64,000 bases of DNA. Origin: Escherichia coli (GTDB lineage Bacteria; Pseudomonadota; Gammaproteobacteria; Enterobacterales; Enterobacteriaceae). The translations under genes and the position numbers were made by a program. The DNA lies in assembly GCF_041886205.1 (NCBI RefSeq), contig NZ_CP169029.1; one strand, given 5' to 3'. The notes under the pieces were generated by a model. The model did not search any database, was not told where the DNA came from, and saw only the letters and a list, made by a program, of their open reading frames with translations. Positions 5,981 through 12,722 of this stretch are shown here, one piece after another; position 1 is the stretch's first letter; each line of letters begins with the position of its first letter.

Positions 5981-7039
5981 GTGCGTGCCGATAAGTCATT
6001 AAGCCCGTTTGAAATCCGGGTATACCGCCATTACCGCATTGTGCATGGTACTCGGGTCGCGCTGGCATTCCTGCTCACTTTTCTCATTATCCGCCTGTTT
6101 ACTATCCCGGAAAGTACCTGGCCGCTGGTCACCATGGTGGTGATTATGGGGCCAATCTCGTTCTGGGGGAACGTTGTCCCTCGCGCATTCGAACGTATTG
6201 GCGGTACGGTGTTGGGGTCGATTTTAGGTCTTATCGCTCTGCAACTGGAGTTAATCTCGTTACCGCTGATGTTAGTCTGGTGCGCGGCGGCTATGTTTCT
6301 TTGCGGTTGGCTGGCGCTGGGCAAGAAACCGTATCAAGGTTTATTGATTGGGGTGACGCTGGCAATTGTTGTTGGTTCCCCGACAGGTGAAATTAATACG
6401 GCGTTATGGCGAAGCGGCGATGTGATCCTCGGCTCTTTACTGGCAATGTTGTTTACCGGTATCTGGCCACAACGGGCGTTCATCCACTGGCGCATTCAAC
6501 TGGCAAAAAGTCTGACCGAGTATAATCGGGTCTATCAATCTGCATTCTCACCGAACTTACTCGAACGCCCGCGTCTGGAAAGCCATCTACAAAAACTCCT
6601 GACCGATGCCGTGAAAATGCGTGGGCTGATTGCGCCCGCCAGCAAAGAAACCCGTATTCCAAAATCGATATATGAAGGTATCCAGACCATTAATCGCAAT
6701 CTGGTTTGTATGCTGGAGTTGCAAATCAATGCATACTGGGCCACGCGCCCCAGCCATTTCGTGTTATTGAACGCGCAAAAACTTCGTGATACCCAGCATA
6801 TGATGCAGCAAATACTGCTGAGCCTTGTTCATGCGCTGTACGAAGGTAATCCGCAGCCGGTTTTTGCCAATACGGAAAAATTGAACGATGCTGTGGAAGA
6901 GCTGCGTCAGTTGCTGAATAACCACCATGACCTGAAGGTTGTGGAAACACCAATCTATGGTTATGTGTGGCTGAACATGGAAACGGCACATCAGCTTGAG
7001 TTGCTATCGAATCTGATTTGCCGGGCCTTGCGCAAATAA
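5981..7039 (+). CDS. yeeA: Inner membrane protein YeeA (FUSC-like)
   Basis: 352-aa ORF with GTG start, hydrophobic N-terminal half; synteny. Confidence 0.85.
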   Translation: MRADKSLSPFEIRVYRHYRIVHGTRVALAFLLTFLIIRLFTIPESTWPLVTMVVIMGPISFWGNVVPRAFERIGGTVLGSILGLIALQLELISLPLMLVWCAAAMFLCGWLALGKKPYQGLLIGVTLAIVVGSPTGEINTALWRSGDVILGSLLAMLFTGIWPQRAFIHWRIQLAKSLTEYNRVYQSAFSPNLLERPRLESHLQKLLTDAVKMRGLIAPASKETRIPKSIYEGIQTINRNLVCMLELQINAYWATRPSHFVLLNAQKLRDTQHMMQQILLSLVHALYEGNPQPVFANTEKLNDAVEELRQLLNNHHDLKVVETPIYGYVWLNMETAHQLELLSNLICRALRK

Positions 7040-7210
7040 TTCCTGAACTTCAGAATCATCTTGCTGCTGCTTCGATTCAGCAAGGATAAAGGGTATGATA
7101 GTGAAAAGGGATAAAAGCATTGTCATCTGCGGCAGCTATGAGTAATGTTGGCCCTAACGAATAGCGGTTGCTTAAACGAATCCGACTCTCACATTATCAG
7201 GGGTATAAAA

Positions 7211-7540
7211 ATGGAAACTACCAAGCCTTCATTCCAGGACGTACTGGAATTTGTTCGTCTGTTCCGTCGTAAGAACAAACTGCAACGTGAAATTCAGGAC
7301 GTTGAGAAAAAGATCCGTGACAACCAGAAGCGCGTCCTGTTGCTGGACAACCTGAGCGATTACATCAAGCCAGGGATGAGCGTTGAAGCAATCCAGGGCA
7401 TCATCGCCAGCATGAAAGGTGACTATGAAGATCGCGTTGACGATTACATCATCAAAAATGCCGAGCTCTCCAAAGAACGCCGCGATATCTCCAAAAAGCT
7501 GAAAGCTATGGGCGAAATGAAAAACGGCGAAGCGAAGTAA
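7211..7540 (+). CDS. yeeX: DUF496 family protein YeeX
   Basis: 109 aa from internal ATG ([14 protein letters not shown]...); highly charged coiled-coil-like protein. Confidence 0.85.
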
Positions 7541-7640
7541 TTCCCGTTTTATTCAATGAGGGTTGCCCGGCAACCCTCATTGCTCATTGATTCTTATCTG
7601 TGTATCACCGTCATCATTCTCATCTGAGAACCAATCGAAA

Positions 7641-7860
7641 TTAACAACAGCCTTCTTCTGTATGCAGCAAGGCAAAAAGTTCTGTAACTCCATTGTTATT
7701 AACTGCACTGGTTACTAACACGTTGTGCGCTCCAGCTTCCCGTAACCAACTTTTCACCAAAGATATTTGTTCCATGCTGGCTAAATCTGCTTTGGTTACT
7801 ACTCCAATGACCGGGTGATTCATGGCCCGGTAGGGCGTTTTTACCTCTAATTCCTGCTTC
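7641..7860 (-). pseudogene. EutP/PduV-like GTPase C-terminal fragment (yoeF-like remnant)
   Basis: C-terminal about 70 aa (...VIGVVTKADLASMEQISLVKSWLREAGAHNVLVTSAVNNNGVTELF...) resembles the EutP/PduV family; no N-terminal domain; upstream part of the track ORF is antisense to the IS66 remnant. Confidence 0.5.
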
Positions 7861-7861
7861 A

Positions 7862-8053
7862 GCGCTGAGATTCCTGCTTGTTGCCGGAAAAGCAGGCACC
7901 TGCCGTCTGAACGGTATCGATCCGGAAGCGTATCTGCGCCATATTCTGAGCATACTGCCGGAATGGCCCTCCAACCGTGTTGACGAACTCCTGCCATGGA
8001 ACGTAGTTCTCACCAATAAATAAGCGTCAATACGGTGCTCCGTTGACGCTTAC
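7862..8053 (+). mobile_element. IS66-family transposase 3' remnant including the terminal repeat (yoeD-like)
   Basis: Translation ...GIDPEAYLRHILSILPEWPSNRVDELLPWNVVLTNK* matches IS66 TnpC C-termini; ends with ...CGTTGACGCTTAC, resembling the IS66 right inverted repeat. Confidence 0.6.
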
Positions 8054-8072
8054 TTTAATCCGTTTTCTGAGC

Positions 8073-8153
8073 TTAGATTTTTCTGTTCCTACCCAGACCG
8101 TGGATTTGGAATTCATTTTTTGTCAGGTCAATGCTAATCGTTAAAACGGCCAT
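8073..8153 (-). pseudogene. Short ORF with IS110-family-like transposase N-terminus, abutting the IS66 remnant
   Basis: GGAGG RBS then MAVLTISIDLTKNEFQIHG..., reminiscent of IS110/IS1111 transposase N-termini; only 26 codons. Recall-based, weak. Confidence 0.3.
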
Positions 8154-8437
8154 AACGCACCTCCACTGGAAGGTTTATCAGTAATATCCTACCGTTGCTT
8201 CATGGTCGGGGCGTCCATTCCATTATTATCGGTTTTCCTTTCTGTTTATAAATGAAAACGCCAGCTGTATTCAGGCTGGCGTCAGGGGAAATGAAGCCTG
8301 TTGAGTGAGATTCACCGGTTCTGGTGCAGAAGCTGCAGATGGCGCAGGGTAAGGACATCTTCTCTTGCCTGCTTAATACAGGACAACAGTGCTGTTTCTG
8401 TGGTTAATGGTACTATACCCTGCATCACTGCATTGTC

Positions 8438-8632
8438 TTACAGCAACTGGTGAGGGCTGGCATAAGTTGCCGGTGTTTCGGTAGAGTCACGGTCATCCAC
8501 CACGCGGAGTGAATAACCTTTTTCAGCGGCCTTATTAATCAGTTCAGTGATATTAACACCATCAATGTCAACGACAATGTGCCCCATATCCAGCGCCTGT
8601 ACGTTAACGCTGTCGGCTTCCAGTGTCATCAT
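8438..8632 (-). CDS. Hypothetical 64-aa protein in the prophage-remnant segment (possibly YeeW/YpjJ-like)
   Basis: ATG with GGAGG 4 nt upstream; acidic protein MMTLEADSVNVQALDMGHIVVDIDGVNITELINKAAEKGYSLRV...; sits where yeeW would be by synteny but I cannot confirm identity. Confidence 0.45.
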   Translation of the reverse strand: MMTLEADSVNVQALDMGHIVVDIDGVNITELINKAAEKGYSLRVVDDRDSTETPATYASPHQLL

Positions 8633-8756
8633 TTCGCCTCCGGATACTTACCCAGGGTAATGTTATTTACCGTTCTGTAATTGTCGCGGGTCATCAGGCC
8701 GGTCGCCCTGCGAGCCCGGAGGATATCGATGCTGTTTATTAACTGAGAGCGGGTAT

Positions 8757-9460
8757 GGGCGCTGCTTCGCAGACAGGCAGAACTTGATGGTATGCCTGCG
8801 ATCAATGCCAAACGTGTTTACCGGATCATGCGCCAGAATGCGCTGTTGCTTGAGCGAAAACCTGCTGTACCGCCATCGAAACGGGCACATACAGGCAGAG
8901 TGGCCGTGAAAGAAAGCAATCAGCGATGGTGCTCTGACGGGTTCGAGTTCTGCTGTGATAACGGAGAGAGACTGCGTGTCACGTTCGCGCTGGACTGCTG
9001 TGATCGTGAGGCACTGCACTGGGCGGTCACTACCGGCGGCTTCAACAGTGAAACAGTACAGGACGTCATGCTGGGAGCGGTGGAACGCCGCTTCGGCAAC
9101 GATCTTCCGTCGTCTCCAGTGGAGTGGCTGACGGATAATGGTTCATGCTACCGGGCTAATGAAACACGCCAGTTCGCCCGGATGTTGGGACTTGAACCGA
9201 AGAACACGGCGGTGCGGAGTCCGGAGAGTAACGGAATAGCAGAGAGCTTCGTGAAAACGATAAAGCGTGACTACATCAGTATCATGCCCAAACCAGACGG
9301 GTTAACGGCAGCAAAGAACCTTGCAGAGGCGTTCGAGCATTATAACGAATGGCATCCGCATAGTGCGCTGGGTTATCGCTCGCCACGGGAATATCTGCGG
9401 CAGCGGGCTTGTAATGGGTTAAGTGATAACAGATGTCTGGAAATATAGGGGCAAATCCAG
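8757..9460 (+). mobile_element. insD: IS2, 5'-truncated (insD C-terminal about 230 codons plus right terminal repeat)
   Basis: ORF 8792-9448 matches IS2 InsD (…[22 protein letters not shown]…SDNRCLEI); in-frame homology begins about 8757 after a stop; IS2 right end TGGATTTGCCCCTATATTTCCAGACATCTGTTATCACTTA present in reverse complement at 9421-9460. Confidence 0.85.
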
Positions 9461-9792
9461 CCACGAATGCGGATTTGTTTACGGCCTGCCAAGGAGTTGT
9501 CTGTTATCTCTACTCCGGGGATGTCCTGCAAATTATCGGCTATGGAGGCATTGGTGGAGTTCTGCAATGTTTGTTGGTCAATAACCTGTATAGTCGCCGG
9601 GCTTTCCCAAAGGTTGCTTGCCGAACGATTCGTGGTCACGACGAGCGTCTCTTCGTTGCTGATTTTTGTTTCTGAAGAAGTTGCGGTTGCAGTAGAAACT
9701 ATCCCAGAAATGCATAATGACAGAGTGGAAAGGATATAAATTCGACAAGGTATATTATATAACATTTCATCCCTCATTAATACAAAGTACAA
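9461..9792 (-). pseudogene. yoeA: TonB-dependent outer-membrane receptor N-terminal (plug) fragment interrupted by IS2 (yoeA-like)
   Basis: Minus-strand translation ...ETLVVTTNRSASNLWESPATIQVIDQQTLQNSTNASIADNLQDIPGVEITDNSLAGRKQIRIRG is a TonB-box/plug region; reading frame runs into the IS2 end. Confidence 0.7.
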
Positions 9793-9822
9793 ATGATTGC
9801 TGTAATGATAATTATTTTCATT
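9793..9822 (-). promoter_or_regulatory. Fur box at the promoter of the disrupted TonB-dependent receptor
   Basis: AATGATTGCTGTAATGATAATTATTTTCATT closely matches the Fur consensus GATAATGATAATCATTATC. Confidence 0.6.
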
Positions 9823-9971
9823 TATGTTCTCATATATCTATAATTATTGTCATCTTCATAAATTGTAAATATCAAACATTTTTGACCTTAATCATGTTTT
9901 TTGATAGATATTTTACGACTGAACATATCCGTCGTTTCCTCTGACTCGTGTCAGTCGGTCTCTGGTTGTAT

Positions 9972-10010
9972 CCACGGACCGCACTCTTGACATAAGAGTG
10001 CGGTCCGTGG
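9972..10010. repeat. Perfect 17-bp inverted repeat with 5-nt loop
   Basis: CCACGGACCGCACTCTT-gacat-AAGAGTGCGGTCCGTGG; no flanking T-run on either strand. Confidence 0.9.
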
Positions 10011-11436
10011 AAAACGGAGTTGAAAAAATGGTGTCTGAAAGAAGGTACCATCATTGTGATGACAAATACTTTGGCGTGGATAATGTAATTAATTGCTGAA
10101 ATTGACCGTATATGCGGTAAGACTCATATCAGTACCAGGTCCGGTTAATTGCTGATACTAATATAAACTTTTTACAAAAGGATGAATGCAGAAGGTTACT
10201 CTAATGGCCAGAGTGATGACAATGATGGTCAGACGTTGACCTGCAGAAACTGCATTTTAATTGGTCTATAAAGTCTGCAAGAGGAATCAGGGTCAGATCA
10301 GTGAGTCTTATCGCGGCCCGAAGCTATGACTGAAAGAAGGCTGGATACAGAATTGCAACAATTTGGCAATGTCAGAACACAGAAGCTTTGCAAGCAGGTG
10401 AAAGGTTATGTCTAGCAAAAGGAGTATATCAGAATATATCTACTGATGTACAAAACACAACAATAGCTTCATGATATATAAATACGTGATGACGAGTGGT
10501 ACTCCGCATGGTTATTTAACTTCTCAGCACCACTAATGATCCTGAGCAACTTCGTATTTGGGCCATTACCATGGAGTAGAAAGCTGTGTCTGAGAATGCA
10601 GAATTTGAGAAAAGAATTCGCTTTCTTGGAGAGCTTCTGAAAATGGCACGCTAACAACGTTTTGTTAAAAAATGTGAATCACTTGCCGGGGCTGCATTTT
10701 CTATTCGAGGAGAATGTTGACGTAGATATTACAGAAATCTCAGCGCATCAGGATAAACTGCTACCTTAGGTCAACCACCAAAAGAAAATACAATACGTCC
10801 AGTTTGTATGCCTTTAATAACACATCTTCTAAATGTTGAAGAATTATCCCGCCTGCTGAAGAACGTTGCTCTGAGTGTGATAAACCTTTTTATTCTTGAT
10901 GATGTCAGCGAGAAGATGGAATATATCCCCGACTGGGTCGTGGTTACCCGGTTAAACATCTGGTGGCGCTAATAAATCTGGCAAGTCACATTCTGTTGAA
11001 TGCTGTGACAGTGCCTTACCGAGAGAGCGAAATTGTGGTGTTCTAGTGCATAGTCGCCACCATTCCGGATAATTCTATTACGTTGTTTTACAAGTTCTTT
11101 TACAGCGCAGATCTGTCGCTGACGTTGAATCAATAGCCTGGATTTCAGAACACAATGCCCGTTTGCTGGTTGTTCCGGCAGTAGCATTAATTCATTATCT
11201 GAATGAAATGTGTCAATCCACAGAAACCGCTGTCAATGACGCATTTTGTCGGACGTTAACACGAGAAAGTCTGGCTATTCCGTAATGCCATCTTATTTCG
11301 TAATGGATTGAGAATGCTGGATTTTTAATTATATTACGCGCAGTATTAATCGCGTAAATGTTTTGCGGTCAGCAACGGTGGGGGATCCATTGTTCTGTTC
11401 AATGAATACCATCATACATTTGAATCAGGAGTCGGT

Positions 11437-11982
11437 ATGATGATTTTGGTGACGGGGGGCGCACGGAGCGGGAAGAGTCGCCACGCAGAGGCGCTTATTG
11501 GGGACTCTTCACAGGTTCTGTATATCGCTACCTCGCAAATCCTTGATGATGAGATGGCTGCACGGATAGAACATCATCGGCAAGGCCGCCCGGAGCACTG
11601 GCGCACAGTGGAGCGCTGGCAACATCTTGATGAATTAATTCATGCAGACATTAACCCGAATGAGGTTGTGTTGCTTGAATGCGTTACCACAATGGTGACT
11701 AATCTGTTGTTTGATTATGGCGGCGATAAAGACCCTGATGAATGGGATTATCAGGCGATGGAACAGGCGATTAATGCTGAGATTCAGTCGTTGATTGCTG
11801 CCTGCCAACGTTGCCCCGCAAAGGTTGTATTAGTGACTAACGAAGTGGGAATGGGGATTGTGCCGGAGAGTCGTCTGGCACGACATTTTCGTGATATTGC
11901 CGGGCGGGTAAATCAGCAGTTGGCCGCTGCGGCAAATGAAGTATGGCTGGTGGTTTCGGGTATTGGAGTAAAAATCAAATGA
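11437..11982 (+). CDS. cobU: Adenosylcobinamide kinase / adenosylcobinamide-phosphate guanylyltransferase
   Basis: 181 aa, P-loop GGARSGKS; first gene of cobUST; contains a Chi sequence GCTGGTGG. Confidence 0.92.
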
Positions 11983-12722
11983 GTAAATTATTTTGGGCGA
12001 TGCTCTCATTTATTACGCGTCTGCCTGTACCGCGTCGCTGGTCCCAGGGACTGGATTTCGAGCATTATTCTCGCGGTATTATTACTTTTCCTTTGATTGG
12101 ATTATTGCTTGGCGCGATTAGCGGGCTGGTCTTCATGGTGCTGCAGGCATGGTGTGGCGCACCACTGGCGGCACTGTTTAGCGTACTTGTGCTGGTGCTG
12201 ATGACCGGGGGATTCCATCTGGACGGCCTCGCTGATACCTGTGATGGCGTATTTTCTGCACGTAGCCGCGATCGCATGTTGGAAATCATGCGTGATAGCC
12301 GTTTAGGCACCCACGGCGGTCTGGCATTGATTTTTGTGGTACTGGCAAAGATTCTGGTGTTAAGCGAGTTGGCTCTGCGTGGCGAATCGATCCTTGCATC
12401 GCTGGCGGCAGCATGTGCGGTCAGCCGCGGGACTGCCGCATTATTGATGTATCGTCATCGTTATGCGCGGGAAGAAGGGCTTGGCAATGTGTTCATTGGC
12501 AAAATTGATGGGCGACAAACCTGCGTCACACTCGGCTTAGCCGCTATTTTTGCTGCCGTATTATTGCCGGGTATGCATGGTGTGGCTGCTATGGTGGTGA
12601 CGATGGTGGCGATTTTCATCCTCGGTCAGCTTCTCAAACGTACGCTGGGCGGGCAAACGGGCGATACGCTGGGAGCAGCCATAGAGCTTGGTGAACTGGT
12701 CTTCCTGCTGGCACTGCTATAA
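11979..12722 (+). CDS. cobS: Cobalamin-5'-phosphate synthase
   Basis: 247-aa membrane protein from ATG overlapping the cobU stop (ATGA). Confidence 0.9.

Follow-up and report, generated by a model that had tools for sequence, protein, structure and literature searches.

An acidic 64-aa ORF in E. coli is yeeW, a truncated DUF5983 allele and probably a promoter-less relic of a decaying island

By its sequence matches, the 64-aa ORF found on the minus strand between two insertion-sequence fragments in this E. coli DNA is the already annotated gene yeeW, known rather than new. In the window, by which we mean the whole 64,000-nucleotide stretch that was analyzed, yeeW is truncated and likely a relic without a promoter of its own, stranded when the decaying island around it suffered a further deletion. 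Such an "orphan" state is ordinary, the locus being in decay in many E. coli lineages. The features discussed are collected in Table 1.

Table 1. Features in and around the yeeW locus, in window coordinates.
Feature	Position	Strand	Description
EutP/PduV-family fragment (yoeF)	7641..7823	-	CP4-44 debris beside yeeW
IS66-family transposase C-terminal fragment (yoeD in K-12)	7886..8023	+	RefSeq annotation of identical locus, by offset
Terminator-like hairpin	8250..8282	-	ACGCCAGC..GCUGGCGU then UUUUCAUUU; RNA fold -17.8 kcal/mol, z=-3.7
DUF957 gene remnant	8312..8428	-	In-frame internal deletion, ~27 aa lost; RefSeq annotation of identical locus
yeeW ORF	8438..8632	-	64 aa; DUF5983 N-terminal domain aa 1-51 and 13-aa tail predicted disordered
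cbtA 3' remnant	8629..8755	-	Last 41 codons (T84-K124) and stop; aligned to K-12/TOK-001 cbtA, tblastn
Shine-Dalgarno GGAGG	8637..8641	-	4 nt before first ATG, 7 nt before second; inside cbtA codons P-E-A
Deletion junction cbtA'/IS2'	8750..8764		Exact 6-bp CGGGTA (8750-8755) within imperfect 15-bp match
5'-truncated IS2	8756..9459	+	~704 of 1331 bp: 3' part of insD and one terminal repeat
yoeA 5' fragment (TonB-dependent receptor plug domain)	9460..9765	-	Maps to K-12 yoeA fragment 1
Sigma-70-like promoter-match cluster	9805..9875	-	Upstream of yoeA'; consensus scan, pattern match only

The Pfam family PF25638 (DUF5983_N) matches the 64-aa ORF over its entire profile (positions 1-56 of 56) with 99.5 bits against a cut-off of 27 (E=7.8e-29). 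In BLASTP, K-12 YeeW (b2006) is identical to the window protein at 63 of 64 positions, N38K being the one difference (98.4% over 64 aa, E=3e-46), and WP_000988599.1, encoded in strains D2 and TOK-001, is identical at all 64. The DNA from 8040 to 8760 is 99.6-99.9% identical to loci that RefSeq annotates as "yeeW: DUF5983 family protein". Of 5426 complete E. coli genomes, 4943 have a match to this segment, and in 3796 the match spans at least 80% of the query. The exact window protein is found on at least 1000 public contigs, as is the K-12 variant; the two share one 90% cluster and go by the names YEEW_ECOLI, CP4-44 prophage, and DUF5983 family protein in public collections. The gene is annotated both in K-12 and by PGAP. 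In K-12 MG1655, yeeW is the last gene of the cryptic element CP4-44, and its neighbours yoeD, yoeF, tmaR (yeeX), yeeA, and sbmC are those found in the window. An earlier note on this DNA, made from the letters without database searches, had guessed a CP4-44 yeeW-type gene from synteny, which the BLASTP match and the RefSeq naming bear out.

The same note proposed YpjJ and YkfH for comparison with the ORF, and these two names were mistaken. Both are DUF987 paralogues of YeeT, with 64-66% identity among the three, and none of the three matched the yeeW ORF by BLASTP even at E<=100; hhalign gave YeeT a probability of 0.8% against the YeeW N domain. Like YeeW, they are small proteins of one island family (CP4-44, CP4-57, CP4-6), but they are encoded upstream of the antitoxin rather than downstream of the toxin. 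A search of NCBIfam returned only a sub-threshold chance match to archaeal ribosomal protein P1, scoring 12.9 bits where the cut-off is 100, which probably explains the odd JGI name "ribosomal protein L12E...". In the literature, yeeW is listed as uncharacterised (PMC11551758) and as the last gene of yeeRST-cbeA-cbtA-yeeW (PMC11551758; PMC7660256). Our literature search found no functional study of yeeW or DUF5983, only lists, adjacency statements, and GWAS or transposon-screen tables, and no published yeeW phenotype.

The protein translated from the window is MMTLEADSVNVQALDMGHIVVDIDGVNITELINKAAEKGYSLRVVDDRDSTETPATYASPHQLL, which starts with MM, and the minus strand ahead of the gene reads CCGGAGGCGAA-ATG-ATG. 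The product is acidic, with a pI of 4.3 and 11 D/E against 4 K/R residues. The sequence thus agrees with the earlier description of an acidic 64-aa ORF whose ATG-ATG start lies 4 nt past a GGAGG, the gene being on the minus strand, and its placement between an IS66-family transposase fragment and a 5'-truncated IS2 is confirmed. The ribosome binding site had been called strong. The GGAGG is indeed present but is no independent signal, as it sits in the last codons of cbtA (..YPEAK*) and is part of an ATGA overlap. The ORF had also been described as the only clean one between 8054 and 8756; it is the longest, yet seven further ORFs of 31-52 aa overlap that segment, among them the DUF957 remnant at 8312-8428.

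To place the 64-aa form within its family, we surveyed DUF5983 loci with one genome per species. The 33 loci are all from Enterobacterales, 32 of them from outside E. coli, and include Escherichia albertii, Salmonella, Klebsiella, Enterobacter, Citrobacter, Yersinia, Hafnia, Edwardsiella, Erwinia, Serratia, and Arsenophonus. The DUF5983 N domain is encoded directly after CbtA in 33 of 33. In about 24 of the 33 the ORF is about 163 aa long with both an N and a C domain, and most of these start in an ATGA overlap. A purine-rich, Shine-Dalgarno-like stretch precedes the ATGA-type overlap in most of the 32 non-E. coli loci. Together, the overlap and the purine-rich stretch form a layout usually read as translational coupling; the coupling itself is putative. 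A reconstruction of the E. coli 042 paralogue across its IS2 insertion likewise gives 163 aa, with PF25638 and PF19419 both present. Other full-length examples are L0008 in a LEE-adjacent element, orf54 in the Shigella SRL island, and orthologues in Salmonella, Klebsiella, Yersinia, Erwinia, and others. Like YeeW, the full-length proteins carry the PF25638 N domain and are encoded directly after cbtA with an overlapping start and a DUF957 gene downstream. Unlike YeeW, they have the C domain PF19419 and are under purifying selection. Comparison of these loci showed the ancestral or normal gene order to be cbtA, an overlapping 163-aa two-domain DUF5983 gene, and then a DUF957 gene.

In pairwise comparisons of the long forms, the N and the C domain each have a dN/dS of 0.16 and the linker has 0.4-0.5; therefore the full-length gene is real and constrained. 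The residues H75, D80, S127, and W163 of the C domain are invariant. An AF2 model of the 163-aa protein built from a 37-sequence alignment has a mean pLDDT of 86, about 97 in the C domain and about 80 in the N domain. Searches of PDB sequences with the 163-aa protein and with the family profile returned nothing meaningful. The family is small: at E<=1e-3, a search of 1.84 billion representatives gives 219 clusters, and many of these are fragments or frameshifted. Published accounts place DUF5983 always downstream of CbtA (PMC10790755; bioRxiv 10.64898/2026.06.09.728211), and PMC6980539 is among the sources that give only adjacency statements or lists. Across Enterobacterales the intact gene is thus conserved and under purifying selection, its start codon overlapping the stop of cbtA, and it encodes a confidently predicted fold that has no solved relative. 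Studies of CbtA and CbeA should use a full-length DUF5983 allele and not K-12 yeeW, which is without the conserved C domain.

YeeW can be aligned to the long form only through ...GYSLRVVDDRDST (about residue 51), and the roughly 330 bp coding for the C domain are absent from the yeeW locus. PF19419 has no match in the 64-aa ORF, and by tblastn the C domain is nowhere in the 64-kb window. These alignments showed YeeW to be a truncated allele made of the N domain and a tail, without the C domain. Modelled alone with AF2, YeeW forms a beta-hairpin and a helix, with a pLDDT of about 89 over residues 1-48 that falls below 50 in residues 49-64. The best Foldseek match of this model in the PDB has an E of 0.56, PADLOC gave no matches, and PHROGs gave weak matches only, to families of unknown function.

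Besides the CP4-44 site, other islands have short alleles of 64-68 aa with the identical tail. These include an island near cadC and another near rpoD, which retain an intact cbtA and an intact 65-aa DUF957 gene; one short-allele sequence is labelled Klebsiella. The 39-nt tail is identical in 7 short alleles and their N domains differ by up to 17 nt. An identical tail on diverged N domains indicates a single origin of the short allele with later spread by recombination. No match to the 39-nt tail turned up when long-form loci were searched for its source. The dN/dS of the N domain is 0.65 in the short alleles against 0.16 in the long forms, a comparison in which the short-allele value comes from 7 alleles of 54 codons, with recombination among paralogous islands as a confounder. 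It suggests relaxed constraint on the short alleles, as far as few, short, and probably recombinant sequences can be read.

Downstream of yeeW, the DUF957 gene is also damaged, as judged against the intact 65-aa DUF957 genes of E. coli 042 and of two other islands (L041, L046). The two genes are in the same frame with one TAA between them (window 8312-8437, minus strand; L041/L046 3205-3423). Some database variants are without this stop and encode fusions of the N domain with the DUF957 remnant of 106-108 aa (P0002, P0041, P0117). The hairpin at 8250-8282 is conserved in sequence in the E. coli 042 paralogue and is the probable 3' end of a cbtA-yeeW-DUF957 transcription unit.

The toxin gene had been taken as missing, which is correct for most of cbtA and for all of cbeA, but the last 41 codons of cbtA and its stop were kept. 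The remnant ends in ..K-Y-P-E-A-K-stop, and its TGA overlaps the yeeW start as ATGA. Against K-12, positions 7000-8764 align to the yeeA...cbtA side and 8750-10500 to the IS2/yoeA side, with a 15-bp overlap. Between the BLAST segments on either side of 8750-8764, 8172 bp of K-12 are missing. They hold the left IS2 with insC, yoeA fragment 2, yeeP, isrC, flu, yeeR, yeeS, yeeT, and cbeA, as well as the first 83 codons of cbtA. K-12 YeeW thus resembles that of the window in its chromosomal site beside yoeD/yoeF/tmaR(yeeX)/yeeA, in the ATGA overlap with the cbtA stop, in the GGAGG, and in the DUF957 remnant downstream. In K-12, however, cbtA, cbeA, and the upstream operon are intact, whereas in the window the end of cbtA is fused to the truncated IS2. 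The IS2 remnant is without insC and the other end, is 99.9% identical to K-12 IS2F (L002 2942-3651), and holds an ORF in the insD frame at 8792-9448.

None of the 5426 complete E. coli genomes has the exact cbtA'/IS2' junction of the window in one piece. The nearest is that of strain D2, which is 100% identical over the aligned 96% of 7000-12000, a 203-bp gap excluded. Its junction (L004 2937-2976) has the same cbtA breakpoint, joined to IS2 203 bp deeper (window 8959). TOK-001 is the closest genome that retains the intervening genes, and the window is without 2268 bp of its sequence. The TOK-001 island is already without flu and yeeR and retains yeeT-cbeA-cbtA-yeeW, with cbtA frameshifted by a 1-nt deletion at nt 221 (L051 1830-2203). 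When the D2, TOK-001, and window junctions are compared, they look like stepwise decay. A cbtA frameshift at the CP4-44 site was seen in several unrelated strains (L051 1830-2203; L001 3590-3963; L042, L044, L045) with yeeW intact; other islands (L041, L046) carry an intact cbtA. Since the frameshift is common at this site, the toxin was probably inactive already before it was removed jointly with the antitoxin. By tblastn, the 64-kb window holds no other copy of CbtA or CbeA.

As the junction lies inside IS2 and not at an IS end, the deletion looks like microhomology-mediated illegitimate recombination. An adjacent deletion mediated by the IS2 transposase was considered and rejected, the junction being at a microhomology within the element.

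The remaining cbtA frame runs into the antisense IS2 up to a TTG at 8811 that is without a Shine-Dalgarno. With only this start available, translational coupling of yeeW to cbtA has presumably been lost in the window, leaving yeeW dependent on its own Shine-Dalgarno. A consensus scan of the minus strand from 9800 to 8632 found no sigma-70-like sites, and no minus-strand terminator is predicted between the same positions. Within 8000-10100, all the minus-strand promoter-like sites that lie upstream of yeeW are in the cluster at 9805-9875, ahead of the yoeA 5' fragment, which is itself upstream of yeeW on the same strand. With no nearer promoter-like site and no intervening terminator, read-through from yoeA' is the only evident transcript route, and we infer that a yeeW transcript would arise only in this way, across the antisense IS2. 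The sequence GAAAATAATTATCATTACA (window 9801-9819, minus strand), upstream of the yoeA 5' fragment, matches the Fur-box consensus by eye at 14 of 19 positions; a Fur-box consensus search allowing up to 3 mismatches found none. If that site is real, read-through into yeeW would be iron-regulated. Rfam found nothing relevant in 7000-10500.

The alignments show a deletion that runs from cbtA into the interior of the IS2 within yoeA; lost with it are cbeA, 83 codons at the start of cbtA, and the operon upstream. What is left is yeeW with only the tail of cbtA that bears its Shine-Dalgarno. It would have lost its native promoter and the translating ribosomes formerly delivered by cbtA, and could be expressed only by yoeA' read-through, initiating at its own GGAGG. 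Most likely, yeeW is now a slowly decaying passenger without a remaining role and not an orphaned antitoxin. Against its being a relic, thousands of genomes and several island sites keep the short ORF intact, in some cases beside an intact cbtA and DUF957 gene, and such wide retention could be a sign of selection and not of youth. The N domain is also predicted to fold on its own. In Serratia sp. DD3, the C domain has an ORF of its own that takes the place of yeeT between yeeS and cbeA, and after cbtA a single ORF joins the N domain to DUF957 (L037, L038; 1202-1582, 2489-2845). An N domain without a covalently linked C domain means that an N-only protein is not necessarily dead.

These same points bear on the strongest rival, namely that the small acidic N-only YeeW still has a function and, its own toxin lost, acts in trans, for example by binding or modulating paralogous CbtA-family toxins or together with DUF957. 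The reading has some appeal: the ORF with its good Shine-Dalgarno is intact in most E. coli, the N domain is an autonomous fold by prediction, and E. coli genomes typically hold at least two cbtA-yeeW-like places. In our sample the N domain occurs only beside CbtA (33 of 33), with five C-domain-only relatives in contexts free of CbtA, and Serratia sp. DD3 provides both a natural N::DUF957 fusion and a separate C domain. Set against these are the dN/dS of about 0.65 in short alleles compared with 0.16 in long forms, the predicted disorder of the tail, the internal deletion of the adjoining DUF957 gene, the failure of our scan to find a promoter of its own, and a window that holds no other CbtA or CbeA copy. 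YeeW also has no similarity to CbeA and no published phenotype. On balance we consider a trans-acting role unlikely, and the passenger without a role is preferred.

A more elaborate form of this idea is more doubtful still. The N+C and N+DUF957 fusions suggest joint action by the N domain, the C domain, and DUF957. It is conceivable, though improbable, that the three form an accessory module of CbtA-type loci in which N-only YeeW serves as a trans-acting adaptor, for example binding CbtA-family toxins or DUF957. Such an adaptor could be of use after loss of its own toxin because of the paralogous islands in the same genome.

The earlier note had raised the possibility that the ORF is the orphaned partner of a deleted toxin, kept for that reason. 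Its basis is adjacency, as yeeW comes directly after the toxin gene with overlapping start and stop. The established antitoxin is CbeA, whose antitoxin activity has been demonstrated; none has been for YeeW. CbeA/YeeU-family type IV antitoxins share the cbtA operon with yeeW, but they are encoded upstream of the toxin and are unrelated in sequence, hhalign giving CbeA against YeeW a probability of 0.2%. The toxin and antitoxin were moreover deleted together, so no addiction pressure is left, and at CP4-44 yeeW often persists beside a frameshifted cbtA, so that retention is not tracking a live toxin. In K-12, the two other CbtA-family loci (ykfI and ypjF) have no yeeW-like gene after the toxin. 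A survey of toxin-antitoxin systems does name DUF5983 as the downstream "partner" of CbtA, on adjacency alone (PMC10790755). Given the lack of similarity to CbeA and the listing of YeeW as uncharacterised, we regard retention as an orphaned antitoxin-like partner as very improbable. That the ORF is a chance open frame in non-coding DNA between two IS fragments can be dismissed: 1239 of 2000 shuffles (62%) of the 703-bp segment 8054-8756 contain an ORF of at least 64 aa, so that yeeW counts as a real gene by homology and not by length, but its Pfam score far above the cut-off, a frame conserved across Enterobacterales with a dN/dS of 0.16 in full-length orthologues, and its annotation in K-12 and by PGAP exclude it.

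More distant relatives, which either consist of just the C domain or join it to another N domain, lie in accessory regions of conjugative elements and plasmids. In our sample, five C-domain-only relatives have no CbtA nearby (L049/L050 5001-5312; L005 852-1421; L047 5001-5567; L006 102-404). One distant relative adjoins DUF932, a NikA-like protein, and a relaxase, another adjoins an SLT lytic transglycosylase, and one is on a plasmid with an IncFII RepA. A relative in an ICE, between ArdC and UvrD/TraI_2, overlaps the end of a DUF1281 gene by 4 bp, which echoes the cbtA overlap. The context suggests for the intact DUF5983 protein an accessory role in the establishment regions of mobile elements, with expression alongside the gene upstream.

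Other observations concern the neighbourhood. In some islands an ORF of 214-227 aa without a Pfam match lies between the DUF987 gene and cbeA (L041 1475-2119; L042 1474-2157); CP4-44 of K-12 has no such ORF. A preprint reports an association between carbapenem phenotypes and IS insertions in the interval from yeeW to yeeX (bioRxiv 10.1101/527788). Bins labelled Segatella copri, Lachnospiraceae, and Collinsella, and the assembly Chryseobacterium sp. 18061, carry Enterobacterales cbtA-DUF5983 modules (L008, L010-L012, L027, L028). One of these, L028, has the same gene layout and the same translated DUF5983 protein as L029 from Citrobacter sp. 18056. The modules in these odd taxa are probably due to contamination or mislabelling in public records.
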